Source: an uncultured Gammaproteobacteria bacterium
GTDB lineage: Bacteria > Patescibacteriota > Microgenomatia > Levybacterales > UBA12049
DNA length: 64,000 bases
Direction of reading: 5' to 3'
NCBI GenBank assembly: GCA_964571255.1
Contig: CAZNAA010000001.1
Coordinates: forward strand, 620,666 to 684,665
The notes under the pieces are model-generated. The model did no database searches, was not told where the DNA came from, and worked only from the letters and a program-made list of their open reading frames with translations. Position numbers and translations under genes: made by a program. Below are positions 2,662 through 23,893 of this stretch, piece after piece. Numbering within the stretch: position 1 is the stretch's first letter; the number at the start of each line of letters is the position of its first letter.

Positions 2662-3153
2662 TTACTGGCGGTATTTAGCAGGAAGCTTAGAAGGACGAGA
2701 AATTCGCTTCGCTCGTGGCTCAAGGACTCGTTGTGCAATAAGCCTTCTGATAAATTCTGTGGTTAAATAAATATCTAACCCTATATCTGCACTTATTTGT
2801 TCGATAGGCCAATTTAAATCTCTTAGTTCAATAATTCGTCCATTCCATTTTTTGAACAGGTTTTCACTTTCTCCTCGAGTAAGGTATTTTCTTCGAGGGG
2901 TTGTTTCTGGCTTCCTATTTATACCTTTCTGACGATGAAGTCTTTCTACTTCAGTTTCCACAACCTCAAACGGTAGAGAAAGAATTTTTGCAATCTCCCC
3001 AGCAGTTTGTCCAAACGATAGATATGTTGGTATATCTCTAATGATTCCATCGCGTCTGATACGTTCATAAGGAGAAAGATTCCTACTAGTACGTGGAAGA
3101 GCATAGAGAAACTTCGAATCCCCCCCAAAATTACTTAATTCTTGCTCTGACAT
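2662..3153 (-). CDS. Hypothetical tandem helix-turn-helix protein, paralog A (163 aa), basic C-terminal tail
   Basis: ORF; two HTH-like segments (GQTAGEIAKILSLPFEVV ; RIIELRDLNWPIEQISADIGLD); ~35% identity to 3638-4156 product. Confidence 0.6.
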   Translation of the reverse strand: MSEQELSNFGGDSKFLYALPRTSRNLSPYERIRRDGIIRDIPTYLSFGQTAGEIAKILSLPFEVVETEVERLHRQKGINRKPETTPRRKYLTRGESENLFKKWNGRIIELRDLNWPIEQISADIGLDIYLTTEFIRRLIAQRVLEPRAKRISRPSKLPAKYRQ

Positions 3154-3637: not shown

Positions 3638-4156
3638 TTACTGTTTACCTCTATATTTTATGGGTCGTTTAGAACGGCCATTATAAACTTGTCTTTTTCT
3701 ACGAGCGATTTCTCCTTCTTCTAATAATTTAGCTAACAGTAAATGAATAGATGACATGTCTAATCCTGTATCCTCACAGATTGCTTGAGCAGTCCATTCT
3801 TTATCTCTTAACTCAATTAGTCTTACTCTGAAGCGATCTAACAATGCTTTAGTCATTTCTGGAGATATAGGGGCTCTATGTCTCACTTCTTTTGGTCTTA
3901 GATTGTTAATACTAATATACTGAGATACTAATGCAACTGGGAGGGAAAGTGTTCTAGCAATAGCTTCATCTGTTAAGCCATTACTGACGTGAAGAGGGAT
4001 TTTTTCTTTCATCAGCTCTCGACGAGCCCGCTCATCAGGAGTTACCTCTCTTCGAGTAGGACGTCGGGGAGTTTGTCTATAGAAAGAACCTCCAGTAAGT
4101 TCTGCACTCATTTTTTTTTGAAAATCATCACCAGACCCTTCCCCCTCTTTAATCAT
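3638..4156 (-). CDS. Hypothetical tandem helix-turn-helix protein, paralog C (~172 aa)
   Basis: ORF; GLTDEAIARTLSLPVALV and RLIELRDKEWTAQAICEDTGLD motifs; start ATG 4156 (MIKEGEG) preceded by TATAAT(4164-4169). Confidence 0.6.
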   Translation of the reverse strand: MIKEGEGSGDDFQKKMSAELTGGSFYRQTPRRPTRREVTPDERARRELMKEKIPLHVSNGLTDEAIARTLSLPVALVSQYISINNLRPKEVRHRAPISPEMTKALLDRFRVRLIELRDKEWTAQAICEDTGLDMSSIHLLLAKLLEEGEIARRKRQVYNGRSKRPIKYRGKQ

Positions 4157-4163
4157 GTGCACT

Positions 4164-4169
4164 ATTATA
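4164..4169 (-). promoter_or_regulatory. -10 element TATAAT 7 nt upstream of ATG 4156 (leaderless-type)
   Basis: minus-strand gtgTATAATagtgcacATG. Confidence 0.4.
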
Positions 4170-4196
4170 CACCTCTTTCAGCTTCGATTAACTTCC

Positions 4197-4205
4197 TGCT
4201 ATAAT
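4197..4205 (+). promoter_or_regulatory. extended -10 TGcTATAAT 6 nt upstream of alaS ATG 4212 (leaderless-type)
   Basis: ccTGcTATAATacgcctATG; divergent from the 4164-4169 element. Confidence 0.5.
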
Positions 4206-4211
4206 ACGCCT

Positions 4212-6113
4212 ATGTTAACTGCAGCTGAAATTATTCAAAGATATATTACCTTTTTTGAAAAAAGAGGACATAAGAGGATTGCAAATGCTCCACTTGTTCC
4301 CCAGAATGATCCCACTACTCTTTTTACCTCAAGTGGAATGCAACCTCTTGTCCCGTATCTTTTAGGAGAAGTGCATCCCCAAGGGACAAGACTGGTTAAT
4401 GCTCAGAACTCCTTTAGAGCAAATGACTTTGATGAGATAGGTGATAACAGACATACCACTTTTTTTAGAATGCTAGGCAACTGGAGCCTAGGAGACTATT
4501 TCAAACAAGAACAAATTCCCTGGTTTTTAGAATTTCTTACTCATAAAGCTGAAGGATTAGGCCTTGATCCTAAAAACATCTATGTAACTGTTTTTTCAGG
4601 AGACAGCGCAAATAATATTCCCAAAGACACCGAATCTGCTGAGATTTGGAAAAAGTTGTTTCAAGAATCAGGAATAGAAGCAAAAGAAGTAGAACTTATT
4701 ACTGAAGAAGAGGGAGCAAAAAAGGGAATGCAAGGTGGAAAGATCTTTTACTACAACGCGAAAAAGAACTGGTGGTCAAGAAGTGGGACACCTGAAAATA
4801 TGCCAGCAGGAGAACCAGGTGGACCAGATACGGAAATGTTTTATGATTTTGGAACTCCCCATGATCCATCTTATGGAGAAAACTGTCATCCAAACTGTGA
4901 CTGTGGCCGGTTTATTGAACTAGGTAACTCTGTTTTCATGCAATATATTAAAAATGCTGACGGAACGTTTTCTCTTCTTCCTAAACAAAATGTCGACTAC
5001 GGAGGAGGACTGGAAAGAATTCACGCTGCAGTTAACAATGTGGCAGATGTCTATCGCACAAACCTTTTCTATCCAATCATTCAAACAATAGAAACACTTT
5101 CTGGCACAACCTATGAAAAAAATCCAAAAGACATGAGAATGATTGTTGGTCATTTGAGTGCAGCCTGTTTTATTATTAATGCTGGTATCTCCCCTTCCAA
5201 TACAGATCAGGGATATATCCTTCGCCGCTCTATTAGACGAGCAATGGATAGTACTCACTCTCTTCACTTAATAGATATTGAGCCTATTATTCAAACACTT
5301 GTTGATCAGTACCAAGAGACTGACCCAGAGTTAGTTGAGAACTTTGAAGTAATTAAAAATACCATTCTTGAAGAAAGTACAACATATAATAAAGCGCTTG
5401 ACTCTGCTAAGAAAAGTATTGAGAAAGAGATTAAAGAGAAAGGCATAAAAATAGGAGACGAACTCATGGGACTTACAGAAATCCCAGCAGAACTCGCTTT
5501 CAAATCCACTGCCTCATACGGCCTTGGCCCAACTCAGTTGAAAAGTCTTGGATACATTTTTGATGAACAAGCTTTTGCAGAGGAGATGAAAAAACATCAA
5601 GAGGTATCCAGGGCTGGAGCTGAGCGCAAATTCAAAGGAGGATTAGCAGATCATGAGGAAAAAACGATTCATGGACATACGGCAACACATTTGCTTCATA
5701 AATCTCTTCGAGACGTATTGGGAACACAAGTTCACCAAACAGGATCAAATATTACAACTGAGCGAGTCCGGTTTGACTTTAGTCACACCGATAAACTAAG
5801 CGATGAACAGCTAAAAACTGTTGAAGATACAGTCAATGAAAAGATCAAAGAAAACTTACCAGTCCATTTTGAGATTATTCCAACTAAAAAAGCCTATGAA
5901 TTAGGTGCTATTGGCTTATTTATGGATACATACGGAGATAGTTCTAAAATTTATTTCATCGGAGATACGTCAGAATCCTACACAAATGCCTATTCTATTG
6001 AATTTTGTGGAGGACCACACGTCGATTTTACAGGAGAGTTAAAATCCTTTAAGATAATAAAGCAGGAGAACCTTGGAAAAAATCAAAGAAGGATCTATGC
6101 TGTTGTTGGATAG
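4212..6113 (+). CDS. alaS: Alanine--tRNA ligase, short form (~634 aa; catalytic + tRNA recognition + editing HxxxH region, no C-Ala domain)
   Basis: MLTAAEIIQRYITFFEKRGH..., TLFTSSGMQ class II motif, FRMLGNWS, editing-domain HGHTATHLLH; ORF-track start 4155 includes the promoter and is probably wrong. Confidence 0.9.
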   Translation: MLTAAEIIQRYITFFEKRGHKRIANAPLVPQNDPTTLFTSSGMQPLVPYLLGEVHPQGTRLVNAQNSFRANDFDEIGDNRHTTFFRMLGNWSLGDYFKQEQIPWFLEFLTHKAEGLGLDPKNIYVTVFSGDSANNIPKDTESAEIWKKLFQESGIEAKEVELITEEEGAKKGMQGGKIFYYNAKKNWWSRSGTPENMPAGEPGGPDTEMFYDFGTPHDPSYGENCHPNCDCGRFIELGNSVFMQYIKNADGTFSLLPKQNVDYGGGLERIHAAVNNVADVYRTNLFYPIIQTIETLSGTTYEKNPKDMRMIVGHLSAACFIINAGISPSNTDQGYILRRSIRRAMDSTHSLHLIDIEPIIQTLVDQYQETDPELVENFEVIKNTILEESTTYNKALDSAKKSIEKEIKEKGIKIGDELMGLTEIPAELAFKSTASYGLGPTQLKSLGYIFDEQAFAEEMKKHQEVSRAGAERKFKGGLADHEEKTIHGHTATHLLHKSLRDVLGTQVHQTGSNITTERVRFDFSHTDKLSDEQLKTVEDTVNEKIKENLPVHFEIIPTKKAYELGAIGLFMDTYGDSSKIYFIGDTSESYTNAYSIEFCGGPHVDFTGELKSFKIIKQENLGKNQRRIYAVVG

Positions 6114-6122
6114 AAGTGCACT

Positions 6123-8495
6123 ATGAAACTGCCTATATCGTTTCCATTTGGGAAAAAAGAGCCACAAAAGGACTATTACCTAGTTCTTCTTCTCCGTGAT
6201 GAAAAAGTCAGTGCTGTTATTTTAGAGGAACAAGAGGCTCAAATCACGGTTAAAAACCTCTCGGAAGAGTCATTACAAACCCCTCTTTCTAAATTAGAAC
6301 TTGAAACCTTTACACAACTTCTCGATAGAACTATTAGTAAAGCTGAAGAACTCCTTCCTCCTAATGTTCAAACAGAAAAAACCATTTTTGGCGTAAAAGA
6401 CAACTGGGTTGAGGAGAAAAAGATTAAAAAAGAGCACTTAGATGTCCTTAAACAAATTGGTAATACCTTAGGATTAAAACCTATTGGCTTTTTAGTCATT
6501 AGTGAAGCTATTGCCCATCAAGTTCAAGAAGAAGAAGGAGCACCTCTTTCTGGACTCGTTGTGGAATTGGGAACTTTCTCGGCAACCATCACTCTTTTTA
6601 AAGGTGGGAGGCTTATTGAAACTCACACAGGAGAGAAGTTAGAAACGCATACCCAAACAGTTGACACGCTGCTTAAGCATTTTAGTGAAGCTGACGTCTT
6701 TCCTTCCCGCCTTCTCATCTTAAATACAGGAGACTCTCCTAACTTGGAACAAGAATTCCTGTCTCACCAATGGAGTAAAAGTATTCCATTCCTTCATATG
6801 CCTCAAATCTCTATTCTTGACTCTCATTTTGACGCAATTTCTGCAGTATATGGAGCTTCCTCTCAAATGGGCTTTAAAGTATTGAGTACAGAACTTACCA
6901 AACAAGCTATTAATATCATCCCTCTCTCTCCAATTGCACTAGAGGATAAAGAAACAGAGGAAAAAAAGGATGATAAAGAAGCAGAGAAATCTGAAACAAA
7001 AGAAGAAAAAGAAGATACTGACGGAAAAGAAAATAAAAAAGATGATGATGAAAAGAAACACGACGAGAAGGAATCAGAAAAAGAACTTCTTAAAGCAAAT
7101 CCCGATAACTTTGGTTTTGTCTCAGAAGAGGACATTGCCTCAACGATTCCTCTTGCTACTCCCACTCCCACTCCCACTCCTGCTTCTTTAGTTGCAATGG
7201 AGAGTGAAAAAGAAGAAGATGAAAGAGAAGAAGAAGAGACAGAAAACACATCACCTTCTCGCCTCTCTCAAAGAAGGAATTTTTCAACTATGTTATCTTT
7301 TTTACCTAAAGGACTTTCTCTTCCTCACCTCTCACTAGGAGCACTCTCTGGAGGAAGAGTTCCCAAAATGGGAATGATTGCTGGAATTGCACTCATTGTC
7401 CTCCTTATTCTTATCCCCTTTCTTTATAAATCCTTTGCTAAAGTAACTATCACCCTTTCTGTGAAAGAAAAATCTTTCTCAGACGAAACAACTGTTACCT
7501 TTGCAGTGGATGAGGAAAATAGTTTTACTGATAATGTTATTGGCGCCAAAACGGTGAGTGTCACGATTGAAGGAGAAGACAGTGCTGAGGCTACAGGGAA
7601 AAAGGATATTGGAGAAAAAGCTAAAGGAGCAGTTACTCTGTATAACAACGGAGACTCTCCACGAACCATTGCTTCAGGAACGGTGCTTAAGGCAAGTAAC
7701 AATGTTGAATTTACTCTAGATAAAGAAGTAACCATTGCCTCAGCCTCAGGAGACATTTTTAGCGGAACAAAGCCGGGAACTTCACAAGGTGCTGTGACGG
7801 CTAAAACCTTAGGACCTGAAGGAAATCTTCCTTCAAATACGAAATTCACTATCGGAGGAAGTAGTGTCTTGGCTGCTAAAAACGATACTGCTTTTTCTGG
7901 AGGAAATAAAAAATCCTTAACAGTTGTGAGCAAAACTGATCGAGACAAATTGCAACTGCAACTTCCTAAAAAACTCGGTGATAAAGCGAAAGAAGAGATT
8001 ACTGCCAAGATATCAAATGACGAAATACTTCTTCCATTTGATTTAGAAACCTCTTTTGATAAAAAAGAATTTGACCGAGCAGTCGATGAAGAAGCAAAAA
8101 GAGTAACTCTTAAAGGAACTATCACCTTTACCGGTGTTATTTATAACAAAGAAGATATAAAACAATATACGCTTGAAAAGGTCAAAGAAAAAACATCAAA
8201 TGATATTTCACTTGCCGAGAATAAACTAACTCAGGAACTATCTGGAATGAAGAGAGATGGGGACGAAATTAGTGCTAAACTTTCTATAAAAGCAGGTCTT
8301 TTGCCTTCCCTTGATACACAAAAACTCCAACAAACTGTTAAAGGAAAAGGAGTAGAGGAAGCACTTACTTCTCTTCGTTCTCTTCCGCAAACTGAAAAAG
8401 TCGAAATCGCTTTCAAACCATCTCTTCCTTTACTCAACGGCTCACTTCCCTCTAAAGAAGGAAATATCACATTTGTGATTAATTCCTATGAATAA
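6123..8495 (+). CDS. Membrane protein: N-terminal actin-like ATPase fold (FtsA/PilM-like), acidic K/E/D-rich linker with TPTPTP, one TM helix, ~350-aa extracytoplasmic beta-rich domain
   Basis: YYLVLLLRDEKVSAVILEE... and LSGLVVELGTFSATITLFKGG resemble phosphate-1/2 motifs of FtsA/PilM; TM MGMIAGIALIVLLILIPFLY; 790-aa ORF. Confidence 0.55.
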   Translation: MKLPISFPFGKKEPQKDYYLVLLLRDEKVSAVILEEQEAQITVKNLSEESLQTPLSKLELETFTQLLDRTISKAEELLPPNVQTEKTIFGVKDNWVEEKKIKKEHLDVLKQIGNTLGLKPIGFLVISEAIAHQVQEEEGAPLSGLVVELGTFSATITLFKGGRLIETHTGEKLETHTQTVDTLLKHFSEADVFPSRLLILNTGDSPNLEQEFLSHQWSKSIPFLHMPQISILDSHFDAISAVYGASSQMGFKVLSTELTKQAINIIPLSPIALEDKETEEKKDDKEAEKSETKEEKEDTDGKENKKDDDEKKHDEKESEKELLKANPDNFGFVSEEDIASTIPLATPTPTPTPASLVAMESEKEEDEREEEETENTSPSRLSQRRNFSTMLSFLPKGLSLPHLSLGALSGGRVPKMGMIAGIALIVLLILIPFLYKSFAKVTITLSVKEKSFSDETTVTFAVDEENSFTDNVIGAKTVSVTIEGEDSAEATGKKDIGEKAKGAVTLYNNGDSPRTIASGTVLKASNNVEFTLDKEVTIASASGDIFSGTKPGTSQGAVTAKTLGPEGNLPSNTKFTIGGSSVLAAKNDTAFSGGNKKSLTVVSKTDRDKLQLQLPKKLGDKAKEEITAKISNDEILLPFDLETSFDKKEFDRAVDEEAKRVTLKGTITFTGVIYNKEDIKQYTLEKVKEKTSNDISLAENKLTQELSGMKRDGDEISAKLSIKAGLLPSLDTQKLQQTVKGKGVEEALTSLRSLPQTEKVEIAFKPSLPLLNGSLPSKEGNITFVINSYE

Positions 8496-9210
8496 AACCT
8501 ATTACAAACAATCCCCTCGGATCAATAAACGGGTTCTGTTTCGTTTTTGTGGAATCTGTTTATGCTTACTTGGCGTTGTGGTAACAGGATATCTTTTTTT
8601 TCCCGTTATTTCCTGGAAGCTATACTTAGAACCAGCTTTTGCTTCTCAACAAATCACAAGTCCTGTTCCTCAAACAAACTTAGTAACGGCCAGTACCTGG
8701 CAAAGTCTTTTACAGTCAAATCAAATTGGAATAAACTTTAACGACCCAAAAAACTGGTTTCCAACTGCGTCTTTTGGCTCAAGTACCAAATCAAGTGTTG
8801 CCGAATACACTATTTCAATCCCAAAAATTAACATTTCCCAAGCGAGTGTCTCAACAATAGATGTGGATTTAGACAGGCATCTTATTAATTACCAAGGCAC
8901 CGCAACTCCTCCAAATAAAGGAAATGCTGTCATATTTGGCCACTCTACTCTCCCTCAGCTCTATAACCCCAAAGATTACAAGACTATTTTTGCTAACGCT
9001 CATACCTTAAAAAATGGAGACACGATTACCGTTCATTTAGACAAGATTGACTATACCTATAAGATTTTCTCTATCACCGTTGTTAGTCCTGAAGATACTT
9101 CCGCTTTAACTCAGAATTTTGATGATAGTTACCTAACGATTATTACCTGTACTCCTCCAGGAACGATTTGGAAGAGACTCATTATTAAATCAAAACTGGA
9201 AAAAATCTAA
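8488..9210 (+). CDS. Sortase family transpeptidase (membrane-anchored)
   Basis: N-terminal TM; conserved His (NAVIFGHSTL), TLxTC-like catalytic Cys motif (LTIITCTPPG), downstream Arg; overlaps upstream gene by 8 nt. Confidence 0.8.
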   Translation: MNKTYYKQSPRINKRVLFRFCGICLCLLGVVVTGYLFFPVISWKLYLEPAFASQQITSPVPQTNLVTASTWQSLLQSNQIGINFNDPKNWFPTASFGSSTKSSVAEYTISIPKINISQASVSTIDVDLDRHLINYQGTATPPNKGNAVIFGHSTLPQLYNPKDYKTIFANAHTLKNGDTITVHLDKIDYTYKIFSITVVSPEDTSALTQNFDDSYLTIITCTPPGTIWKRLIIKSKLEKI

Positions 9211-9251
9211 CCCTTCCCCACTTCTATCCTATTCCAGTATACTAAGGAGGT

Positions 9252-9401
9252 ATGGAAGGATTTTCTGCTCGAGCCTTTAGCTATTTAAAACAAATTTGGC
9301 CAACCATCTATCGAGGCATCAACTCTTTTTTCTACCTTTTCTTGTCATTTATGAAAAAAAGTGTTTCTCTTATGATTAGTCAAATGAAGGGAGGAGTGTA
9401 A
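9252..9401 (+). CDS. Small ORF (49 aa, hydrophobic) translationally coupled (TAATG) to downstream phosphorylase gene
   Basis: AAGGAGG 5 nt upstream of ATG 9252; MEGFSARAFSYLKQIWPTIYRGINSFFYLFLSFMKKSVSLMISQMKGGV; its 3' end supplies GGGAGGAG for next gene. Confidence 0.25.
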   Translation: MEGFSARAFSYLKQIWPTIYRGINSFFYLFLSFMKKSVSLMISQMKGGV

Positions 9402-10675
9402 TGGATCAGGAAGAACTTGCCCTTGACGCTATTCGAAAAAAGTTAGTTGGAAAATCTCTTAACTATAAAGAGATTTATGCCATTATGGATGAGATTGCCC
9501 ATGAGAAATTGGGAAATATCTTAACCACCTATTTTGCTGCATCTGGCTACTCAAAAGGATTTAGTGATGAAGAGCTATACTTTTTAACCAAAGCCATGGT
9601 AGAAACAGGGGAAAGGTTACGATTTGATGGAATTGTTGCTGATAAACACTCTATTGGCGGAGTTCCAGGAACAAGAACCACAATGATTGTTGTCCCCATT
9701 ATTGCCAGTGCAGGATTTACTATCCCCAAAAGTTCTTCTCGAGCCATCACAACTCCTGGAGGAACGGCAGATGATATGGAAGTTTTATGTCCAGTAACCT
9801 TTGATAAAGAAGAAATCTATAAAATTGTTGAGAAAACAAATGGCTGTATTGTCTGGGGAGGCAGCTTTAATATTGCACCAGCTGATGATATTTTAATTAA
9901 AGTAGAAGCTCCTCTTCTTTTTGAAAGTTTTGACAAAATTATTGTCTCTATTTTGGCTAAAAAAATTGCCTTTGGTTCAACTCATGTCATTATTGATCTT
10001 CCCTATGGAAAAGATGTCAAAGTTCATAGAGAATCTGATGCTCAAGTTCTGGCAGATAAATTTATCATGCTCTCTAAAAAATTCAAGATAAAACTTGAGG
10101 TCTTAATTCATAAAGTAGACGAACCTGCAGGACGGGGGCTAGGACCACTTCTTGAGACACGAGAGGCTCTTAGAGTTCTTGAACAACGAGAAGAGCGACC
10201 AATAGACCTTGAAGAGAGAGCACTGAATCTAGCAGGAAAGCTGCTTGATCTTTGTTTATCAGATTCTACGAAGCATTTACGAGAAACAGTATACGATCAA
10301 TATAAAACTGGTAGAGGCTGGGCTGAATATATTCTCTCCAGTGGTCAAGCTCATAAAAAAATGCTTGAGATTATTAAAGCACAAGGTGGAAAAGATACAG
10401 TACAAAGTATTGATCTGGAACCGGGAAAGTTTACTCATAGTGTCAAATCAACTCATTCAGGAAAAGTAAAAGGGATTAACAGTAAAAATGCAACCCTCCT
10501 TGCCAAAATCCTTGGAGCTCCACAAATGAAAACAGCAGGACTCTATTTAGACAAAAAAGACGGAGACAGTGTAGAAAAAGGAGAGAGTATATATACTCTT
10601 TATTCAGACGACGAGCATAACCTAAAAGAAGCTGTTGAATCAGTCAATCATTTTCCAGTCACTATTTTTTCCTAA
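9401..10675 (+). CDS. Nucleoside/AMP phosphorylase family protein (glycosyl transferase family 3; thymidine/AMP phosphorylase-like)
   Basis: DKHSIGGVPG(TRTT) phosphate-binding motif, TPGGTADDMEVL, 424 aa. Confidence 0.8.
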   Translation: MDQEELALDAIRKKLVGKSLNYKEIYAIMDEIAHEKLGNILTTYFAASGYSKGFSDEELYFLTKAMVETGERLRFDGIVADKHSIGGVPGTRTTMIVVPIIASAGFTIPKSSSRAITTPGGTADDMEVLCPVTFDKEEIYKIVEKTNGCIVWGGSFNIAPADDILIKVEAPLLFESFDKIIVSILAKKIAFGSTHVIIDLPYGKDVKVHRESDAQVLADKFIMLSKKFKIKLEVLIHKVDEPAGRGLGPLLETREALRVLEQREERPIDLEERALNLAGKLLDLCLSDSTKHLRETVYDQYKTGRGWAEYILSSGQAHKKMLEIIKAQGGKDTVQSIDLEPGKFTHSVKSTHSGKVKGINSKNATLLAKILGAPQMKTAGLYLDKKDGDSVEKGESIYTLYSDDEHNLKEAVESVNHFPVTIFS

Positions 10676-11638
10676 ATGAAAAACCGTTTAAAACTTTTCA
10701 TTCTTATCATCCTCCTTTGTGGAGTTACCCTCAGTTTTGGAGCTTGGAATTGGGCAAATTCTCCAGCTGATTCAAAAAACACCGTTTCTTCTATGTTTGT
10801 TATTGCTAAAGGAGAAGGAATTCGCTCTATTGGAAAAAGCTTGAAAGAACAAGGATTAATTAAAAGTGAAATTGCGTTTTATCTTCTTGTAAAAGAAAAA
10901 AGCTTTGATAATAAAATTCAAGCAGGAGATTTTCGCCTATCTCCTTCTCTTTCCCTTGAACAAATTATAACAACGCTAACTCAAGGCTCTCTTGATGTGT
11001 GGGTAACCATTCCTGAAGGGAAAAGATCTGAGGAGATTGTTGCAATTTTAAAAAAACAGTTAGCAACAGTAACACCTTTATGGGAGGAGGAGTTTAAAAA
11101 ACATGAAGGCTACCTTTTCCCAGATACCTATCTTATCCCACAAGATGCTGATGCCTCCCTCGTCATTTCTCTTCTGACCTCAACATTTGAGAAAAAGTAC
11201 GAAGCTGCAGTAGTCAAACAAACCTCTCCTTACACCAAAGAAGAAATTGTTATTTTGGCGTCCCTCATTGAAAGAGAAGCAAAATTTCCAGAGGATCGAG
11301 AAAAAATATCCTCAGTTTTACATAATAGACTTGAGATTGGTATGGCGTTGCAAATTGATGCAACTGTTCAATATGCCCTAGGGTTTCAGACACAAGAGAA
11401 TAAATGGTGGAAGGGAAGTCTGACGAATACCGATTTGAAGAAAGTAAGTCCTTACAACACCTATCTTCACCCAGGCTTTCCTCCAACTCCTATTAGTAAT
11501 CCAGGCCTTGCCTCACTCTTAGCAGCAGCAAATCCTGATAATACCTCTTACCTCTATTACTTATCAGATAAAACAGGACATAATCACTACGCAGAAACAT
11601 TTGAACAGCATCAAGCAAACATTGCGAAGTATCTTTAA
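10676..11638 (+). CDS. mltG: Endolytic murein transglycosylase MltG (YceG family)
   Basis: N-terminal TM, LASLIEREA, DATVQYALG, NTYLHPGFPPTPISNPG motifs. Confidence 0.85.
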   Translation: MKNRLKLFILIILLCGVTLSFGAWNWANSPADSKNTVSSMFVIAKGEGIRSIGKSLKEQGLIKSEIAFYLLVKEKSFDNKIQAGDFRLSPSLSLEQIITTLTQGSLDVWVTIPEGKRSEEIVAILKKQLATVTPLWEEEFKKHEGYLFPDTYLIPQDADASLVISLLTSTFEKKYEAAVVKQTSPYTKEEIVILASLIEREAKFPEDREKISSVLHNRLEIGMALQIDATVQYALGFQTQENKWWKGSLTNTDLKKVSPYNTYLHPGFPPTPISNPGLASLLAAANPDNTSYLYYLSDKTGHNHYAETFEQHQANIAKYL

Positions 11639-12099
11639 GCACTCTTTTTCGTACTTCGTTTAAAAAAGCGACGAGGGGATTTAGGTGACTCTCCACTAGT
11701 CATAATCGATTCTTTTATCTCAGCTAATTTTTCTTGTGCTGTTTCAACCAATTCAAGTTTTTTTAGATCTGCAATTACATCGGTAACTTGCTCACCCATG
11801 GGCGTTTCTTCCATTTTTTCAACCACTGCTTCAATCGCTTTCTTGGCTGAAGTAGTTTTTTCTAACACCTGTTTCTCTATCTTCTTTTCAAAAGGGGATA
11901 AATGTTTTTTTGCATTCTCAACTGTTACCTTTCCTTCGTCAAGAAGCTTTTCCAACTCGGAGAGAACATCTTCTCCTTCTTTTCCAATCTTAGAAAGTAA
12001 CTCACGCCCTTTTTTGCTCGTTAAAAAAAGCGTTGCAGCTACTCCAACCACCACACCTACTACAAATCCGCTAGCTCCTTGAGACTTTTGTTCATCCAT
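11635..12099 (-). CDS. YtxH-like membrane-associated protein (coiled-coil, N-terminal G/V-rich hydrophobic segment)
   Basis: GFVVGVVVGVAATLFLTSKKGRELL N-terminus typical of YtxH family; 154 aa. Confidence 0.55.
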   Translation of the reverse strand: MDEQKSQGASGFVVGVVVGVAATLFLTSKKGRELLSKIGKEGEDVLSELEKLLDEGKVTVENAKKHLSPFEKKIEKQVLEKTTSAKKAIEAVVEKMEETPMGEQVTDVIADLKKLELVETAQEKLAEIKESIMTSGESPKSPRRFFKRSTKKSA

Positions 12100-12101
12100 A
12101 C

Positions 12102-12362
12102 TTACTTTTTGTTTGAGAGAAGAGACTTGATAAGTTTAAAAATTCCTGTAATTGAGATCTCTTTTAGTATTCCTGAGATGTTTGAAAGTGGAGTAAGTAA
12201 CCCTTGAGCTGATGCATGAAGCTTTTCTACTGCAGTTCCAGCATTTTTAATAACCATTCGTACCTCTTTAATCAAAAGGAAAACTTGCACTCCAATAATC
12301 ACAAGAACAATCGTAATTGAAGTAAGAGTAAGAAGAAGAATGATTTGAACTGCTTCTGGCAT
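12102..12362 (-). CDS. DUF948-like small membrane protein
   Basis: 86 aa, single N-terminal TM then helical region; adjacent to YtxH-like gene as in Firmicutes. Confidence 0.5.
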   Translation of the reverse strand: MPEAVQIILLLTLTSITIVLVIIGVQVFLLIKEVRMVIKNAGTAVEKLHASAQGLLTPLSNISGILKEISITGIFKLIKSLLSNKK

Positions 12363-12392
12363 ATATCAAGCTTAACAGAAACTACGGTGGTG

Positions 12393-13028
12393 TCAATTGT
12401 CTTGAATGACTACATCTCGTTTTATGATGGTTTCCTTACCAAAAGTATTGCGAGCAACGACAGTTATCGTATTACTCCCTGGAAAAAGAGTAATTACTTT
12501 ACTAAACTCTCCTTGCTCTGAAACTGTTACTTGATCTTCATTCACAAAGACCAAAACAGAGGGATCTGTCTCCCCTGTTACTCGGACATCTTGTCCAAAA
12601 CTCTCTTGATCTTTAGGAGAAGAGAGGGAGATTCGAGGAGGAAGAAAAGCTGCGCGGTATTGATAAAAAAGATAAGAAAAGATAATAAGAAGTACTCCTA
12701 AAACCAAAAAAATCATTCGCCTCAGTCTAAACCTGCCAGTTCGCACCGTATGTTCTTTCGTAAAACCTTTAGGAAGTATCCGGTACGCATTATTGGCGTC
12801 AAATTCCCGTTTAAAAAGAGGGATAATACGTCTAGACGGGATGCCTAAAAACTCAGCATAATTTTTGACAAACCCTTGAGCATAGGAAGGAGAGGGAAGT
12901 TTATTATACTCCCCTTTCTCAATTGCGCTAAGGAACGAAAGTTTAATTCGTGTTCCCTCTGCAACCTCTTGTAGTGTCAATTTTTTATAAAGACGAGTTT
13001 CTTGAAGAATCTGACCAACAGTGATCAT
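12393..13028 (-). CDS. rodZ: RodZ-like cytoskeleton protein (XRE-type HTH + TM + C-terminal domain)
   Basis: MITVGQILQETRLYKKLTLQEVAEGTRIKLSFLSAIEKGEY HTH, TM MIFLVLGVLLIIFSYLFY. Confidence 0.7.
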   Translation of the reverse strand: MITVGQILQETRLYKKLTLQEVAEGTRIKLSFLSAIEKGEYNKLPSPSYAQGFVKNYAEFLGIPSRRIIPLFKREFDANNAYRILPKGFTKEHTVRTGRFRLRRMIFLVLGVLLIIFSYLFYQYRAAFLPPRISLSSPKDQESFGQDVRVTGETDPSVLVFVNEDQVTVSEQGEFSKVITLFPGSNTITVVARNTFGKETIIKRDVVIQDN

Positions 13029-13031
13029 AAC

Positions 13032-15170
13032 TTACTCAGAAGTAGAACTATTATTCATCGATTGGAGAAATTCATCAGCGTTTCGAACCAATACGTCACG
13101 TGGCTTTGATCCCTCAGCGTGACTAATAATCCCCAATTCTTCTAATTGATCAATAATTCTAGCAGCTCGAGAATACCCTATCGAAAGCTTTCTTTGCAAG
13201 AAGGAAGCTGAGGCAGTATCAAATTGACAGACCAGTTTTATTACCTCCTCAAACAAAGGATCCCTCCCGTCACTACTCGTACCAGCCCCTGCTCCTCCTT
13301 TTCCATTCTTGCCTCCAACAGGTTGGTTCAAAATCTCCTCAGTATACTCAACCGGAATTTCTTTTGCTTTTAAGTAGTCAACGAGTTTTTTAATTTCCTT
13401 CTCACTAACCCAGGCTCCTTGAATACGCGTTGCTTTCGCTTGATCTGGGGGAACAAATAACATATCTCCTCTTCCAAGAAGTTTTTCAGCTCCTGGTGCG
13501 TCTAAGATTACTCGAGAGTCAATTTGTGAAGAAACGTTAAAGGCAATACGAGATGGAATATTAGCTTTAATTAAACCAGTTATCACGTTAACTGATGGAC
13601 GCTGCGTTGCTATTACTAAATGAATCCCTGTAGCTCGAGCCATTTGAGCAAGCCTAGCAATCGCATCTTCCACCTCAACAGGTGCAAACATCATAAGATC
13701 TGCTAGCTCGTCAATAATGATGACAATATAGGGAAGGGCTTGAAAGCCTGATAATTCGTTATAGGAATCAATATTTCGTACTGCTCTTTCAGCAAATAAT
13801 TTATATCTGCGATCCATCTCCGATACTGCCCATTTGAGAGCTGAAAGAATTTTTTCTACATCCACAATCACAGGAGTTAATAAGTGAGGAATTCCGTTAT
13901 AGGAGGTAAATTCAACTCGTTTTGGATCAACTAAGATAAGTTTAATTTCCTGAGGAGATGCTCTAAAAAGAAGAGACGTAATGATTTCATTCATGAGTCC
14001 TGATTTTCCAGATCCAGTGGTACCAGCAATTAAAACGTGTGGCATTTTGGCAATATCAGCAATAATTGGTGCTCCTGAAACGTCAAGACCAAGTGAGACT
14101 GCGAGTTTAGATTTACTTTTTTGCATAGCAGCAGAGCCAAGCATAGTTCGAAGCGGAACAACTTCCAAAGACTTATTCGGGATTTCAATACCTACTAAGT
14201 TTCGGCCAGGAATTGGAGCTTCAATACGAATTTGTCCTCCTGGGGCTTCTGTAGCAAGTGCTAGGTTTGAAGCAAGAGAGGTAATTTTGGTAACTTTTGT
14301 TCCAAGTGCAATTTCTAAAGCATACTGAGTGACAGCTGGTCCTAAATTTACCTCAGCAACTCTAGCTTCAATCCCAAAAGACTGAAGCGTTTTTTCAATA
14401 ACAGAGGCGATTTTATTCACGTCTCCACGTTCTGCCTTGGCACCTGGTGCATCAGAAAGAAGAGAAAGAGGCGGATACTCCCAAATTCCTGTTCCATTCG
14501 GAGTCATCATATTCGTAACAAGTTTTTCTGAGAGCAAATCTTCCTTTTTGGCTTGATTTACCGGTTTGTCATTTTGAATAGGAGGTGCAACCTGGTCTTT
14601 TTGTAATCCTTTAATTTGAATTGGTTTACTCCTATCTAAGGTTGATTCAGATTTTTTAAACAGAGAAAAAAGTGACCAAGGAACTAGTTTTTTTCCTACT
14701 TCTTTGATATTGATGACAATTTGTAAGAATTCATCAAAAGACGTGTCAAACATGACAATAGCTCCCACTAAGATACCAAAAATAAAGACCAATCCTGCTC
14801 CAGGAGTAGTTAAAATCTCTTGAAATATATGAAACAAACTGCCTCCTACTTCTCCACTTTTTGTAATACCAATGACTGAGAGGAAGAAAAGGAGAAATCC
14901 AATCGTGACATTAAGTCGGGAAAGAAAAAATTTCAGGTGGAGAATATAAAACCCACCAAAAAAAAGAAGAAAGGGAGCTAAGAATGATCCTCCACCAAAT
15001 TTTTGTTCTAAGAGTATGCCAACTTGTGCCATACTTCCTTCTTGATATACTAAGGAGAGAAATAGGAGTCCGGACACTAACAAACTCCCTGTTCCAAACA
15101 GGGTATAAATGGTATTTTTCTTTAGCTTTAATTTAAGCCCTCGTTTTCGATATCCTCGTTTTGATCCCAT
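13032..15170 (-). CDS. ftsK: DNA translocase FtsK/SpoIIIE
   Basis: N-terminal TMs, Walker A LIAGTTGSGKSG, Walker B IVIIIDELADL, C-terminal winged-helix gamma domain. Confidence 0.9.
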   Translation of the reverse strand: MGSKRGYRKRGLKLKLKKNTIYTLFGTGSLLVSGLLFLSLVYQEGSMAQVGILLEQKFGGGSFLAPFLLFFGGFYILHLKFFLSRLNVTIGFLLFFLSVIGITKSGEVGGSLFHIFQEILTTPGAGLVFIFGILVGAIVMFDTSFDEFLQIVINIKEVGKKLVPWSLFSLFKKSESTLDRSKPIQIKGLQKDQVAPPIQNDKPVNQAKKEDLLSEKLVTNMMTPNGTGIWEYPPLSLLSDAPGAKAERGDVNKIASVIEKTLQSFGIEARVAEVNLGPAVTQYALEIALGTKVTKITSLASNLALATEAPGGQIRIEAPIPGRNLVGIEIPNKSLEVVPLRTMLGSAAMQKSKSKLAVSLGLDVSGAPIIADIAKMPHVLIAGTTGSGKSGLMNEIITSLLFRASPQEIKLILVDPKRVEFTSYNGIPHLLTPVIVDVEKILSALKWAVSEMDRRYKLFAERAVRNIDSYNELSGFQALPYIVIIIDELADLMMFAPVEVEDAIARLAQMARATGIHLVIATQRPSVNVITGLIKANIPSRIAFNVSSQIDSRVILDAPGAEKLLGRGDMLFVPPDQAKATRIQGAWVSEKEIKKLVDYLKAKEIPVEYTEEILNQPVGGKNGKGGAGAGTSSDGRDPLFEEVIKLVCQFDTASASFLQRKLSIGYSRAARIIDQLEELGIISHAEGSKPRDVLVRNADEFLQSMNNSSTSE

Positions 15171-15243: not shown

Positions 15244-16848
15244 TTACATTAAGCACGTAAACGGATGAGTTTTATCTTGTTTATAGATCCCACCCCACTC
15301 AACTACGGTGAATCCTTCTCGTTTAAATGTATGTATTTCAGGCTTTTCTATAGCAATAGGTGTATTAATAGGCTCGAAATAGAACATCACTCGAAGCAAA
15401 GAAGTAGGGGATGGAAAGACTGAAAGAGGAGATAATTCTGCAAGAGTTTCTTCAGAAACAAGCCCAACAAGATAATACGGAGACGATGGAAGAATTGGAT
15501 TCCAGTATTCTAAAAAGTCGTTTTTTTCTTTTTCATTAAGACCTACCTCAGTTAAAATCTTAGCTAAATCCTGAGACAAGGTAGAGGCGGGAAAGACATA
15601 GCCTTTAGTTGGTCTGCTAACTTTTTGATCAGGAAGTTTAGCTTCATAATATAAATAATCATAATATTTGTCTCCTCCCCAAATTTGTCCTGAGGGATGA
15701 GCGATAACACTCCATCCTGAAGTTGGGTAAGAAGGAGAAGTATAGGTCATCGGACCGACAGGTTTTACCAAAACATGTACAGGCTGTTTTATCTCTGGAT
15801 ACAGATATACAGCCGGCTTACATTCAGGAGTCCACCATCCCCATGGTTCAACTCCTGGTGCAATAGGGGTAAATGTGCCAATTTGAAGCGTATTTTTCCC
15901 ACTAGCTCCTGTAGTTTCTTCGTTGATTTGAAAGGACTTTGGATCTGGTACTGGATAAGCAGGCGAAACATATTTGTAAATGACTCCCTCTTCTCCTGGT
16001 TCTGGAGCATCATCAAAGAGAATCAGTTGGGGCATGATGGACTCACTAACGTAATGAGCAGAGTAGGTTTTTTGCTTCCCTTTATACGTAAAGGTATATT
16101 TCCCCCGAGGAAATTTATTTGATAAGTTATATTCTCCAGTCCCCGTTGTTTTATAATCATAGGCCAGAAGAGAGTATTTTGTATTTGCTGGCGGTTTAAT
16201 CTCGCATCTGTCACCAATCGGAACTCCATTTTGTGTCACAATATAACACCCGTCCCCTGAGCCATTCTGCCAGCTAGTAATAGCAGCGCTATTTAGCGAG
16301 GTTGGAGGATTTATATTTCCTGCTTCATCACGAGTTAAAGGCCGAGGACCGAGTTGAGAATTTAAATTACAATGCTCTTGAATAAAACCAGGAATTGGGT
16401 TGTTTTCTTCATAATAGACGTCAAAAAATATATAAACTGGACTATTTTGCTCTGGAGAAACATCTTGACTGACATCGACAAATACCATTTTAAAAGCATC
16501 ATCAGTCCACCCTGAGAGATAGATTCTATCATCAACAAAATATAACTCTCGTGTCTTTCCTTCGATAGTAATATTTTGTCCGGATTTTTCTAAATGCAGT
16601 GAGAGTTCTATTTTTAGAAATGGTACAGCTTTTCTAATGAGTCTGTAATTCTTACCATTAAAACTTAAAGGAGTACCTGAATTTGGAGGAATAACACATG
16701 GCTGAAGTTCTACATTTACGGAAGTTGGCGCGTTCGTCGTTTTGTCTGGTGTATAAAAGAGTCCTGAAAGTAATACGGCAAACACTGTTGCTACTCCCAA
16801 TCCTAAAATAACACTTAATTCAGAATCACCACGCAAAAGTTTTTTCAT
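15244..16848 (-). CDS. Hypothetical secreted/membrane-anchored protein (534 aa)
   Basis: N-terminal TM/signal anchor, no recognisable family. Confidence 0.6.
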   Translation of the reverse strand: MKKLLRGDSELSVILGLGVATVFAVLLSGLFYTPDKTTNAPTSVNVELQPCVIPPNSGTPLSFNGKNYRLIRKAVPFLKIELSLHLEKSGQNITIEGKTRELYFVDDRIYLSGWTDDAFKMVFVDVSQDVSPEQNSPVYIFFDVYYEENNPIPGFIQEHCNLNSQLGPRPLTRDEAGNINPPTSLNSAAITSWQNGSGDGCYIVTQNGVPIGDRCEIKPPANTKYSLLAYDYKTTGTGEYNLSNKFPRGKYTFTYKGKQKTYSAHYVSESIMPQLILFDDAPEPGEEGVIYKYVSPAYPVPDPKSFQINEETTGASGKNTLQIGTFTPIAPGVEPWGWWTPECKPAVYLYPEIKQPVHVLVKPVGPMTYTSPSYPTSGWSVIAHPSGQIWGGDKYYDYLYYEAKLPDQKVSRPTKGYVFPASTLSQDLAKILTEVGLNEKEKNDFLEYWNPILPSSPYYLVGLVSEETLAELSPLSVFPSPTSLLRVMFYFEPINTPIAIEKPEIHTFKREGFTVVEWGGIYKQDKTHPFTCLM

Positions 16849-22762: not shown

Positions 22763-23893
22763 TTAGACATTTGAGGAGCCTTTATATACTTTAGGGGTTA
22801 GCCAATCAGCAGGAGGAGTATTTTGTCCTTTATCACTTTGTGGTCTACTTTCCTGTTGGACTACTTGTTCCTCAACTACATCAGAAACTGCAGGAACTGA
22901 AAACGCTAAATCTGCAAAAGGATCTCGTTGAGGTTTTGGTTGGGTTGGTTGTCCACCTTGAGTATTTTGATTACTTTGCGATCTTGGTTGCTGTTGCTGA
23001 CGATTTTGATTCTGTTGTTTTGGCTGTTGGTTTCGTTGCGTATTTTGTCCAATTTGATTTTGTTGCTGTAGCTTTGATTGAGCTGGCTGATTTTGTTGTT
23101 TTGGTTGCTGCATTAAACTCATAAAGTCATCTCTGGCTTCAGTATGAAGAGCACGAGCTTGTTCCCGAGTTGCTCCTTTTTTCATGAGTTCTGCTGCCAT
23201 TTCAAAAGCAAGAAAACTCGTATTATCGTTTTGGAAATTATTTGTTCCGTCAATAATTCCAGAAAGGAGGTTTTGGGCTGCGTCTTGATCAATAGAGGTT
23301 TCATATCCAAGGGTTAAAATAAGATCAGCAACTTGCTCAGAAAGAGAAGAGAATCGACCTGAAACTAAATTAATATCGCCATATCTTTCATTACTGTCAT
23401 TATTATCAATATTTACAATCGTTGCATCTGTTAATGAGTCAGCAGCAATAGATGTATACATATCATCGTTATAGGACACCCCGATGGTGAGCAATAATTG
23501 AATAACTCCTGTTCCGCGGGTAAACTTAACACTTTGTTCATCAAAACTCAAACCAATCTCTCCAGCTTTGACTACAATGTTGAGAAAGTTATCATCCATG
23601 GTATAGGAAACGTTCTCAATTTCTCCGTCTTTATACGGGAAGGAAACAATCAAATCGCCTTCATTTGAAGCAGGCTGAGTGTGTACTTGATCAATACCTA
23701 CTAACGAGCCAACAGCAACGGTTGGTTCTGATCCAGTAATAACTTGGGGGGATTTTTGCAAACTACGCAAAACAAGAGATAAAGAAAGAGCTGCAGCCAT
23801 CTGGTCAACGGTTGGATTTTTTCCTACCAAAACCACGATTTTTTCGCTTTTCTCAATGGTACTTTTAAGATTTTGCAGTAATTGTTCGTCCAT
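22763..23893 (-). CDS. DHH/DHHA1-like (NrnA-like) protein with degenerate catalytic motifs and ~120-aa Gln/Asn-rich C-terminal tail
   Basis: N-terminal IVVLVGKNPTVDQMAAALSL resembles NrnA motif I region but lacks DGD; DHH replaced by DQVH; tail QQPKQQNQPAQSKLQQQNQIGQNTQRNQQPKQQNQNRQQQQPRSQSNQ. Confidence 0.5.
   Translation of the reverse strand: MDEQLLQNLKSTIEKSEKIVVLVGKNPTVDQMAAALSLSLVLRSLQKSPQVITGSEPTVAVGSLVGIDQVHTQPASNEGDLIVSFPYKDGEIENVSYTMDDNFLNIVVKAGEIGLSFDEQSVKFTRGTGVIQLLLTIGVSYNDDMYTSIAADSLTDATIVNIDNNDSNERYGDINLVSGRFSSLSEQVADLILTLGYETSIDQDAAQNLLSGIIDGTNNFQNDNTSFLAFEMAAELMKKGATREQARALHTEARDDFMSLMQQPKQQNQPAQSKLQQQNQIGQNTQRNQQPKQQNQNRQQQQPRSQSNQNTQGGQPTQPKPQRDPFADLAFSVPAVSDVVEEQVVQQESRPQSDKGQNTPPADWLTPKVYKGSSNV

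Follow-up and report, generated by a model that had tools for sequence, protein, structure and literature searches.

In PilM-PilN and in GspL/EpsL, a cytoplasmic actin-fold module is joined, by binding or by fusion, to an N-in bitopic protein with an extracytoplasmic domain. GspL is the fused counterpart of the PilM+PilN architecture: actin fold, transmembrane (TM) helix and ectodomain stand in one protein, and its ATP site is degenerate. FtsA contacts late divisome proteins and the tail of FtsZ through its subdomains 1C and 2B. Bacteria of the candidate phyla radiation (CPR, Patescibacteria) may represent a large share of bacterial diversity and, to our knowledge, almost nothing is known about how they divide, build their wall or organise their surface. 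Here we describe a conserved envelope-spanning module of Levybacteria, a CPR lineage, in which an actin-fold domain is fused through a TM helix to an ectodomain of another kind. A literature search combining sortase, baseplate J, FtsA and LPXTG with CPR, Patescibacteria and Microgenomates found no description of this family.

The gene, here called X, occupies 6123..8495 on the forward strand of the 64,000-nt stretch of DNA that was analysed (the window). It encodes a bitopic protein of 790 aa, composed of an actin-fold domain, a linker, a single TM helix and a Baseplate-J-like ectodomain. X begins 9 nt after the stop of alaS (alanyl-tRNA synthetase; 4155..6113, +; PF01411 at 1e-92), its conserved upstream neighbour. 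It is followed by a gene for a 240-aa sortase (8488..9210, +), whose ATG begins the last 8 nt of the X ORF (junction sequence TCCTATGAATAA); the ORF list and this junction confirm the coordinates and the 8-nt overlap given in a preliminary description of the locus. Farther downstream, Pfam identified an AMP/thymidine-phosphorylase-like gene (9401-10675, +), mltG/yceG (10676-11638, +) and, on the reverse strand, genes for a YtxH-like protein, an 86-aa membrane protein, a RodZ-like protein (HTH_25 plus a TM helix) and FtsK (11635..15170, -). X thus sits in an alaS-(ruvX)-mltG cluster beside ftsK and rodZ. Scans of 3900-9500 for promoters and terminators gave results no better than shuffled sequence; operon structure is read from gene spacing only. 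More than 490 full-length homologues of X were found, and a profile of its N-terminal domain matched 1,373 cluster representatives in a library of 1.84 billion proteins; X is therefore no chance ORF.

Residues 17-255 of X (6171..6887, +) constitute a minimal ASKHA/actin-fold domain. In the AF2 model (pLDDT 88.8), residues 1-262 form two RNase-H-like beta-beta-beta-alpha-beta-alpha-beta-alpha halves, the two lobes by which an ASKHA fold is recognised, and FtsA was the best structural match. Direct searches returned no actin-related match for this domain, either in Pfam (with full X and with 29 members at E <= 10), in NCBIfam, or in the PDB by phmmer and by profile. Likewise, hhalign gave no significant alignment of the N-domain profile with the nucleotide-binding domain of the window's own DnaK or with the single sequence of E. 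coli FtsA (0.4%), although the latter alignment still paired VVELGTFSATITLF with VVDIGGGTMDIAVY. The connection was made through standalone FtsA-like proteins of other CPR bacteria. Against these, the N-domain profile aligned over 228 columns with a probability of 98.4% and an E value of 4.8e-15, and the standalone proteins in turn matched FtsA at 3e-21 and PilM at 4e-15 in the PDB. Taken transitively, these profile matches point strongly to homology between the X N-domain and the FtsA/PilM clade. The preliminary description had proposed an FtsA/PilM-type actin fold at the N-terminus and had named profile searches as the means of overturning it; the searches, like the modelled fold, came out in favour of the proposal.

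The phosphate-binding-like motifs that had also been reported are present only as degenerate remnants and are better described as lost, since X contains no DxG, DxGGG or GGG motif. In the hhalign alignment, DIGT of the standalone proteins falls on LLRD of X, with the Asp opposite Leu24, while DIGGxTT falls on ELGTFSA and GGG(S) on NTG. Asp26, near the lost phosphate-1 site, is replaced by Pro in distant members, and the former nucleotide-binding loops show low conservation among X orthologues. Subdomain 1C (the SHS2 insert) is also missing: nothing is inserted between helix 60-75 and strand 86-91 of the model, and the 1C insertion appears only on the standalone-protein side of the alignment. 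Subdomain 2B is absent as well. We conclude that subdomain 1C and all three nucleotide-binding motifs, phosphate-1, phosphate-2 and adenosine, are gone from the fused actin domain; judging from these residues, the domain has probably lost ATP binding. In front of the fold stands a conserved peptide, MKLP(I/V)P... (aa 1-16; 6123..6170, +), which is flexible in the model, with low pLDDT at aa 1-10. M1, K2, L3 and P4 vary little or not at all among 73 X orthologues, and we regard the peptide as a candidate partner-binding motif.

The standalone proteins belong to an unfused, two-gene version of X in Parcubacteria. There, proteins of the P0332 type (Portnoybacteria/Paceibacterota) have a TM helix and ectodomain like those of X and no actin domain. 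At 60 loci with enough upstream DNA, an FtsA-like ORF was found directly upstream of the P0332-type gene in 43 and nearby in 3 more. These FtsA-like proteins retain DIGT, DIGGxTT and GGGS, and alaS lies upstream in the fused and unfused versions alike. In the Levybacteria/Microgenomates lineage of the window, the two genes of the module have been fused. By their scores, the unfused relatives are of the FtsA type and not of the PilM type. Their matches to TIGR01174 (ftsA) range from 8e-20 to 3e-33, with scores under the curated cut-off of 175.9, and those to pilM are far weaker (about 1e-6); E. coli FtsA, used as a query, finds 24 of them directly.

This strong leaning towards ftsA, together with FtsA as the best structural match, argues for X as a divisome protein. 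It would then be a TM replacement or partner of FtsA (functionally, of FtsQ/DivIB-type bitopic proteins) that tethers or organises the FtsZ ring by its own TM helix, while the ectodomain organises septal wall synthesis and the sortase is a mere neighbour using the same site. The adjoining ftsK, rodZ-like gene and mltG are consistent with such a role, and a true TM helix could substitute for the amphipathic membrane anchor of FtsA. However, the subdomains missing from X, 1C and 2B, are the ones with which FtsA contacts the late divisome proteins and FtsZ, a search of the window and of about 170 loci found no ftsZ homologue, and the ftsA scores of even the unfused homologues remain below the cut-off. 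We consider a divisome role of this kind unlikely, though far from negligible.

The actin-fold domain leads into an acidic, K/E/D-rich cytoplasmic linker (6888..7097, +) with a mean column identity of 0.24; the charged segment of aa 263-330 contains 26 D+E and 15 K+R in 68 residues. Inside this otherwise variable linker is a conserved short motif, (D/E)NFGFVxxxDI (7098..7142, +), in which F330, G331 and F332 are invariant among the 73 orthologues and which distant members keep as FGF(L/I/M). A TPTPTPTP low-complexity linker, read directly in the sequence, follows (7155..7184, +; ATPTPTPTPAS at about aa 345-355), and relatives do not conserve it. The single TM helix (7365..7433, +; about aa 415-437) shows a hydropathy peak of 2.82 at aa 416-434 and is preceded by four K+R and no D+E; because the basic residues lie on its N-terminal side, the predicted topology is N-in/C-out. 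Residue composition, inspection of the sequence and hydropathy are thus in line with the acidic segment, the TPTPTPTP linker and the one TM helix that had been described.

The extracytoplasmic domain (aa 438-790; 7434..8492, +) comprises about 353 aa and is mostly beta in the predicted structure, which matches the beta-rich ectodomain of ~350 aa first proposed, and it is colinear with whole baseplate wedge (gpJ/gp47/TRI-2) proteins. Within it lies a Baseplate_J/GlxA-type beta-barrel core (aa 497-594; 7611..7904, +). PF04865 (Baseplate_J) matched full X with 22.4 bits (E 8.7e-5) and the ectodomain alone with 23.9 bits, the gathering cut-off being 21.1, and it matched 23 of 23 aligned members (best E 6.7e-9); PF21110 (GlxA) matched 15 of the 23. 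By sequence the barrel also matched diffocin TRI-2, at 1.9e-5, and many phage, pyocin and PVC wedge proteins were among the structural matches of the ectodomain. No PilN, PilO, GspL or GspM structure was among the ectodomain matches listed. The X ectodomain is Baseplate-J/GlxA-like, not PilN/O-like.

Taken at face value, the Pfam and structural matches would make X a remnant of a prophage or contractile injection system, and NCBI indeed names relatives 'baseplate J/gp47 family protein'; the other current database label is 'hypothetical'. However, the neighbourhood contains no gene for a tail, sheath, tube, spike or further baseplate component; in all loci the genes around X are alaS, sortase, a phosphorylase gene or ruvX, mltG, rodZ and ftsK, and more than 80 species-level genomes have X at a fixed chromosomal position between alaS and the sortase gene. 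X does not differ in GC content from the surrounding DNA, carries a TM helix as well as an actin domain on the cytoplasmic side, and shares its beta-barrel with a cellular enzyme, GlxA. With its chromosomal context fixed and tail genes missing, we reject this prophage or injection-system reading as extremely improbable, and the misleading phage-like annotation is corrected accordingly.

The ectodomain bears equally on the earlier comparison of X with PilM-PilN joined in a single polypeptide. The comparison is apt for the architecture, and the unfused two-gene version exists in Parcubacteria, but it fails for the ectodomain. X might nevertheless be an alignment protein of a type IV pilus or type II secretion-like system (PilM-PilN(-PilO) or GspL-like), linking a cytoplasmic ATPase to extracytoplasmic pilus components. 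Actin fold, TM helix and ectodomain follow one another as in GspL or a PilM-PilN fusion, GspL likewise has a degenerate ATP site, and type IV pili occur in nearly all CPR bacteria (PMC6744442). On the other hand, neither the window nor any of about 170 loci contained a pil or gsp gene, whereas PilM/N/O genes of CPR bacteria are reported to co-localise with the other pilus genes (PMC6744442), and the Baseplate-J-like fold is foreign to PilN, PilO and GspL/M. We therefore hold a pilus or secretion role to be distinctly improbable. The CPR 'Pam' pilus (bioRxiv 10.64898/2026.03.03.709456), which belongs to the chaperone-usher pili, bears no relation to X.

The identification of the downstream ORF as a sortase held up. 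It matched PF04203 at an E value of 1.2e-20. A membrane anchor lies at its N-terminus (aa ~23-41), and the catalytic domain (aa 109-237) contains invariant His152, Cys221 and Arg230; FGHST, TCTPPG and WKR are invariant too. The best PDB match was 4d70 at 3.9e-12. Every NCBIfam sortase class, including D, E and F, scored under its cut-off, and the best of them was class C with 66.3 bits against a cut-off of 160. The sortase gene lies directly 3' of X in 76 of 76 informative Levybacteria loci, and the 8-nt overlap is found in 44 of 79 loci, with a 4- or 1-nt overlap in 8 more. The pair is still adjacent at 25-28% identity, where the flanking gene order differs. X is translationally coupled to the membrane-anchored sortase, and the conserved overlap supports the co-expression suggested at the outset. 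Both proteins have N-in anchors, and their main domains lie outside, on the same side of the membrane.

No C-terminal LPXTG-type sorting signal was found in window ORFs of at least 80 aa, as the preliminary description had noted, and a sorting-signal scan of about 170 related loci revealed no encoded sortase substrate. X itself ends in ...NITFVINSYE, with neither an LPXTG signal nor a C-terminal hydrophobic segment, and its sole TM helix is N-in; lacking the signal and having the wrong topology, it cannot be a canonical sortase substrate. Two cryptic motifs in X were considered and rejected: LPQTE (aa 754-758), in which the Thr is not conserved and the consensus is LPQV, and NLPSNT (aa 568-573), a structural motif common to diffocin TRI-2.

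Because the pair is flanked by further conserved genes (alaS, mltG, ftsK and rodZ), the adjacency of the sortase could reflect inherited synteny and not functional coupling. In that case X and the sortase would be functionally unrelated, their overlap frozen in a syntenic housekeeping cluster, and X a lone envelope scaffold. alaS was upstream of X in every related locus, and conservation extends beyond the pair to the entire alaS-X-srt-...-mltG block with rodZ and ftsK. Moreover, no sortase was found near the Parcubacterial module (0 of 82 loci), so the sortase is not intrinsic to the module, and a sortase is near-ubiquitous in Microgenomates in any case (PMC6744442). Against this, most lineages keep the 8-nt overlap, and the adjacency survives two rearrangements seen in more distant lineages, where ruvX takes the place of the phosphorylase gene and the YtxH-like/RodZ-like/FtsK block is co-directional and upstream of alaS-X-sortase, inverted relative to the window. 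The placement of both main domains on one side of the membrane also speaks against unrelated functions, which we regard as unlikely.

The explanation we prefer, tentatively and with slightly less than even confidence, is that in X an ancient two-gene module of the CPR has become a single fused gene, and that X acts as a nucleotide-independent envelope scaffold with the sortase. The two components of the module would be an actin-fold protein of the FtsA family and a membrane protein with one TM pass and a baseplate-wedge (gpJ/gp47)-like outside domain, and X would span the envelope in a manner comparable to GspL or a PilM-PilN unit. The pseudo-actin domain, with the MKLP... and ...NFGFV... motifs, may dock a cytoplasmic partner or self-associate; the TM helix may transmit signal or position; and the ectodomain would build an oligomeric platform in the wall zone, oligomerisation being suggested by analogy with phage wedges. 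The co-made sortase beside X would attach surface proteins to nascent peptidoglycan at the position of X, probably where the wall is growing or the cell is dividing. A division role is proposed only because of the FtsA-like ancestry and the neighbouring genes.

In a broader and quite unlikely extension of this scaffold model, X and its unfused ancestor would be a hitherto undescribed, CPR-wide core envelope machine, in which an FtsA-derived cytoskeletal element is coupled through the membrane to an outside ring or lattice of wedge-like domains and, in Microgenomates, positions a dedicated sortase. If so, cells would assemble septal or host-contact surface structures at a place set by the cytoskeleton, and the baseplate-J fold would have a cellular, non-phage use. 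X is a lineage-wide, single-locus, fast-evolving envelope protein. Its degenerate FtsA-type domain, the split Parcubacterial version and the coupling to a near-universal Microgenomates sortase offer testable handles on CPR envelope organisation.

Set beside the sortases of classes C and D in Gram-positive bacteria (PDB 4d70, 6ixz), the downstream gene product shares the sortase fold signature, the His-Cys-Arg triad and the N-terminal anchor. It differs in scoring below every NCBIfam class cut-off, in having no C-terminal TM helix and no adjacent pilin or LPXTG substrate gene, and in being paired with an actin-fold TM protein, a combination for which we found no described precedent. With baseplate J/gp47/gp6/TRI-2 wedges (PF04865; PDB 9ki1, 8v3w, 7kh1), X shares the beta-barrel by sequence and a nearly full-length colinearity of its ectodomain with wedge proteins of 350-400 aa. 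Unlike them, X is predicted to be membrane-anchored, exposed outside the cell and fused to a cytoplasmic actin domain, and it is chromosomal, single-locus and lineage-wide, with no partner wedge, hub or tail genes. GlxA (PF21110; the Streptomyces lividans radical copper oxidase, PDB 4unm) has only the barrel of about 100-130 residues in common with X, which lacks the copper-oxidase propeller domain.

FtsA (PDB 3wqt, 7q6d, 1e4f) is related to X through the standalone CPR proteins; both are membrane-attached, and genes for the cell envelope and division lie close to X. In contrast to FtsA, X lacks subdomains 1C and 2B and the ATP-binding motifs; where FtsA ends in an amphipathic helix, X has a genuine TM helix and an ectodomain of 350 aa. 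Its gene does not stand beside ftsZ, X has no direct Pfam or NCBIfam FtsA match, and we do not class it as a functional FtsA. The architecture is analogous to that of PilM-PilN and GspL, and here, too, split and fused versions both exist. The ectodomains of PilN, PilO and GspL are ferredoxin-like, which sets these connectors apart from X; no pilus or secretion genes lie near X, and its unfused relatives are FtsA-like and not PilM-like. After PilM-PilN and GspL, X is a third case in which an actin-fold adaptor is coupled to a bitopic membrane protein, here with an ectodomain unrelated to theirs.

The 790-aa protein X is encoded at 6123-8495 (+), starting only 9 nt after the alaS stop codon, and is followed by a 240-aa ORF (8488-9210, +) whose match to PF04203 (E 1.2e-20) identifies it as a sortase. 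The junction sequence, TCCTATGAATAA, places the sortase ATG 8 nt ahead of the end of X. Within X, residues 263-330 are K/E/D-rich (26 acidic and 15 basic in 68 residues), residues ~345-355 read ATPTPTPTPAS, and a single hydrophobic helix, peaking at residues 416-434 with basic residues N-terminal of it, leads into a C-terminal part of ~353 aa. The acidic segment, TPTP linker, TM helix and ~350-aa ectodomain listed in the preliminary description are each present, and the domain architecture and N-in/C-out topology of X are established.

Base composition was uniform across the X region, and the remainder of the window consists of housekeeping genes. Elsewhere in the window, the gene for a 1,106-aa protein (33264-36584, -) overlaps the start of one of two ClpB-like AAA+ genes that follow one another (30416-33280, -, and 27658-30033, -). 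The 1,106-aa protein weakly matched TrbL/VirB6 (E 1.3e-4, short of the Pfam cut-off) and might be a membrane protein of a secretion or conjugation-like system. Immediately upstream of alaS, the opposite strand carries two small paralogues (2662-3153, -, and 3638-4162, -; 30% identity, E 2e-15), one with a weak IclR-type HTH match and both with a basic C-terminal tail (...KYRQ / ...KYRGKQ); other Levybacteria loci have rpoB/rpoC or other genes at this position. No Pfam match was found at E <= 1e-3 for the ORFs at 15244-16848 (-, 534 aa) and 22763-23893 (-, 376 aa), or at E <= 1e-4 for that at 44794-46287 (+, 497 aa). Because of its hydrophobic N-terminal segment, the 534-aa product may be secreted or surface-exposed.

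In the model of X residues 425-790 (pLDDT 87.7, pTM 0.58), the domains are confident and their relative arrangement less so. All 23 aligned family members matched Pfam Baseplate_J (PF04865; best E 6.7e-9), and 15 of the 23 matched the GlxA beta-barrel model (PF21110). Searched against the PDB, the X family profile hit TRI-2, a wedge protein of diffocin (E 1.9e-5), and Foldseek aligned 349-373 columns to whole wedge proteins of 346-404 aa, a near-full-length alignment indicating that the entire ectodomain is colinear with a baseplate J protein. By both Pfam and Foldseek, the ectodomain is Baseplate_J/GlxA-like and not PilN/PilO/GspL-like. As used by NCBI, the name 'baseplate J/gp47 family protein' is correct for the ectodomain only and is silent on the other half of X.

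That other half, the N-domain, was not directly recognized in Pfam, NCBIfam or PDB searches. With 29 homologues as input, AlphaFold2 gave a confident model of residues 1-262 (pLDDT 88.8, pTM 0.84), which consists of two successive beta-beta-beta-alpha-beta-alpha-beta-alpha units without inserted subdomains. The weakest match on an outward search from X, the 572-aa P0332, belongs to a Portnoybacteria/Paceibacterota (Parcubacteria) family and shares the TM helix and ectodomain of X, preceded by an unrelated ~80-aa domain and a charged linker. The P0332 gene is immediately preceded on its contig by one for a distinct protein of 395 aa with Pfam PilM_2 and FtsA matches, and alaS lies farther upstream. 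A metagenome scan for P0332-type ectodomain genes yielded 80 additional loci. Where at least 1.3 kb of upstream DNA was available (60 loci), an FtsA/PilM-like ORF was directly upstream in 43 and nearby in 3 more; alaS was directly upstream in the remaining 14. Downstream, infA was present in 70 Parcubacterial loci. The standalone FtsA-like proteins retain canonical DIGT, DIGGxTT and GGGS; they scored 8e-20 to 3e-33 against TIGR01174 ftsA, below the curated cut-off, and ~1e-6 against pilM. In the PDB they matched FtsA (3e-21) and PilM (4e-15), and E. coli FtsA as query directly found 24 of them.

The conserved Parcubacterial order (L091, 2948-4135 and 4203-5921; also L093-L172) runs alaS, (small ORF), divergent ftsA-like gene, bitopic GlxA/Baseplate-J ectodomain protein, infA, ribosomal protein genes. 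No ftsZ adjoins the ftsA-like member of this order. The ~80-aa conserved start domain of the ectodomain protein (consensus ...IINLKILKEE...) had no Pfam or PDB match.

Comparison by hhalign of the X N-domain profile with the standalone proteins gave 98.4% probability and an E-value of 4.8e-15 over 228 columns, covering the entire domain; with the two-unit fold of the model, this upholds the actin-fold relationship proposed earlier. The standalone neighbours and the profile-profile match indicate that X is the fused form of an FtsA-like and ectodomain gene pair, which adjoins alaS in both major CPR groups. We conclude that X originated by fusion.

The 'phosphate-binding-like motifs' once ascribed to X did not survive this alignment, in which the phosphate-1 Asp of the standalone proteins corresponds to Leu24, DIGGxxT to ELGTFSA and GGG to NTG. 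Nearby Asp26 is substituted in more distant fused members (KPFS or KPYS there). Judged by the aligned residues, the ATPase motifs have been lost in the fused domain. Strongly conserved are the N-terminal MKLP peptide, LDKTISKAEExLPP, TVFGVKxxW, PIGF and WSKSLPFLHxPQ; the linker, though variable elsewhere, contains an FGF that is invariant. From these patterns we infer that the N-domain may be a nucleotide-independent adaptor with candidate peptide-type binding sites. A more specific role, in which X replaces FtsA in the divisome, is unlikely: subdomains 1C and 2B are absent, the 1C-equivalent insertion occurring in the alignment only in the standalone proteins, and no ftsZ lies nearby in the window or about 170 loci.

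More than 490 full-length homologues of X were found at ~40% identity, and a search of 1.84 billion proteins with the N-domain profile gave 1,373 representatives, 1,177 of them at E <= 1e-10. Among the 150 matches listed, most were 700-820 aa; some of the shorter ones, which go down to 254 aa, are truncated sequences. A one-genome-per-species scan gave 80 loci, every meaningfully named one from a Levybacteria/Patescibacteria MAG and several under apparent placeholder labels, e.g., 'uncultured Gammaproteobacteria'. Many MAGs bearing the Levybacteria-specific locus (L005-L084) carry that title or 'Candidatus Limnocylindrales', 'Lysobacterales', 'Methylomirabilota', 'Eisenbacteria' or 'Acidiferrales', which look placeholder or taxonomically wrong because the synteny is fully Levybacteria-type.

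The sortase gene lies directly 3' of X in 76 of 76 loci with enough downstream DNA. The 8-nt overlap in the preliminary description was borne out in the window, and the first in-frame sortase ATG overlaps the X stop likewise in 44 of 79 related loci; a further 8 have an overlap of 4 or 1 nt. Several public assemblies call the sortase start too far downstream, masking the overlap; the L001 sortase (8348-9082) is called from 8438, yet similarity starts at 8348. The whole block is conserved (alaS-X-sortase-phosphorylase-mltG, with ytxH, a rodZ-like gene and ftsK on the opposite strand), so that adjacency within Levybacteria alone could be plain synteny. In the most distant fused members (L087-L089), at only 25-28% identity, X and sortase are still adjacent, in the one-strand order ftsK-rodZ-two small genes-alaS-X-sortase-ruvX-small gene-mltG. 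The alaS-ruvX-mltG cluster is a classic conserved one of Firmicutes, into which the X-sortase pair seems to have been inserted, staying together while the surroundings rearranged. We conclude that, in the Microgenomates branch, X and a membrane-anchored sortase are tightly coupled in translation; the position of X among genes for the envelope and division is fixed. A few genes beyond mltG, L087 (13068-13856) and L088 (12478-13170) encode a small protein that matches Pacifastin_I / VWC2L_2nd in Pfam and in which the scan found no sorting signal.

His152, Cys221 and Arg230 of the sortase are invariant. Of the solved structures, class C/D-like sortases match it best (top 4d70, E 3.9e-12), and it falls below the NCBIfam cut-off for every sortase class. 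As first reported, no LPxTG substrate is visible in the window: no C-terminal LPXTG-type sorting signal was found among its ORFs of at least 80 aa, and scanning the window and about 170 related loci found no substrate encoded nearby. Sortase was also absent from the Parcubacterial ectodomain loci (0/82). The sortase-free module, the lack of a nearby substrate and the fact that X is not a canonical substrate itself weaken a strong X-sortase link. That the two have no functional link at all we consider improbable.

Our general picture, tentative and somewhat short of an even chance, is that X would be a scaffold that spans the envelope in the manner of GspL or PilM-PilN. Inside the cell, its pseudo-actin domain and conserved motifs would either bind a partner or self-associate. 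In the wall zone, the baseplate-J-like ectodomain would assemble into an oligomeric platform, and the co-made sortase would act at that site. Phage wedge proteins dimerize and form rings (T4 gp6, Mu gp47).

Literature searches found no published description of X, which is relevant mainly to CPR cell biology and work on actin-fold adaptors. The likeness to PilM-PilN/O-type connectors drawn in the preliminary description holds for architecture, in which X resembles GspL and PilM-PilN, but not for ectodomain fold or gene context, and membership tests placed X outside these systems. CPR PilM/N/O genes co-localize with pilus genes (Méheust et al., PMC6744442); that X is part of a pilus machine seems quite doubtful. 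By the Pfam threshold, the ectodomain is a member of the Baseplate_J family, but X lies in no injection system, and we give hardly any credence to a phage or injection-system remnant. The defining functional features of FtsA are missing from X, but by descent it is a member of the FtsA/PilM clade.
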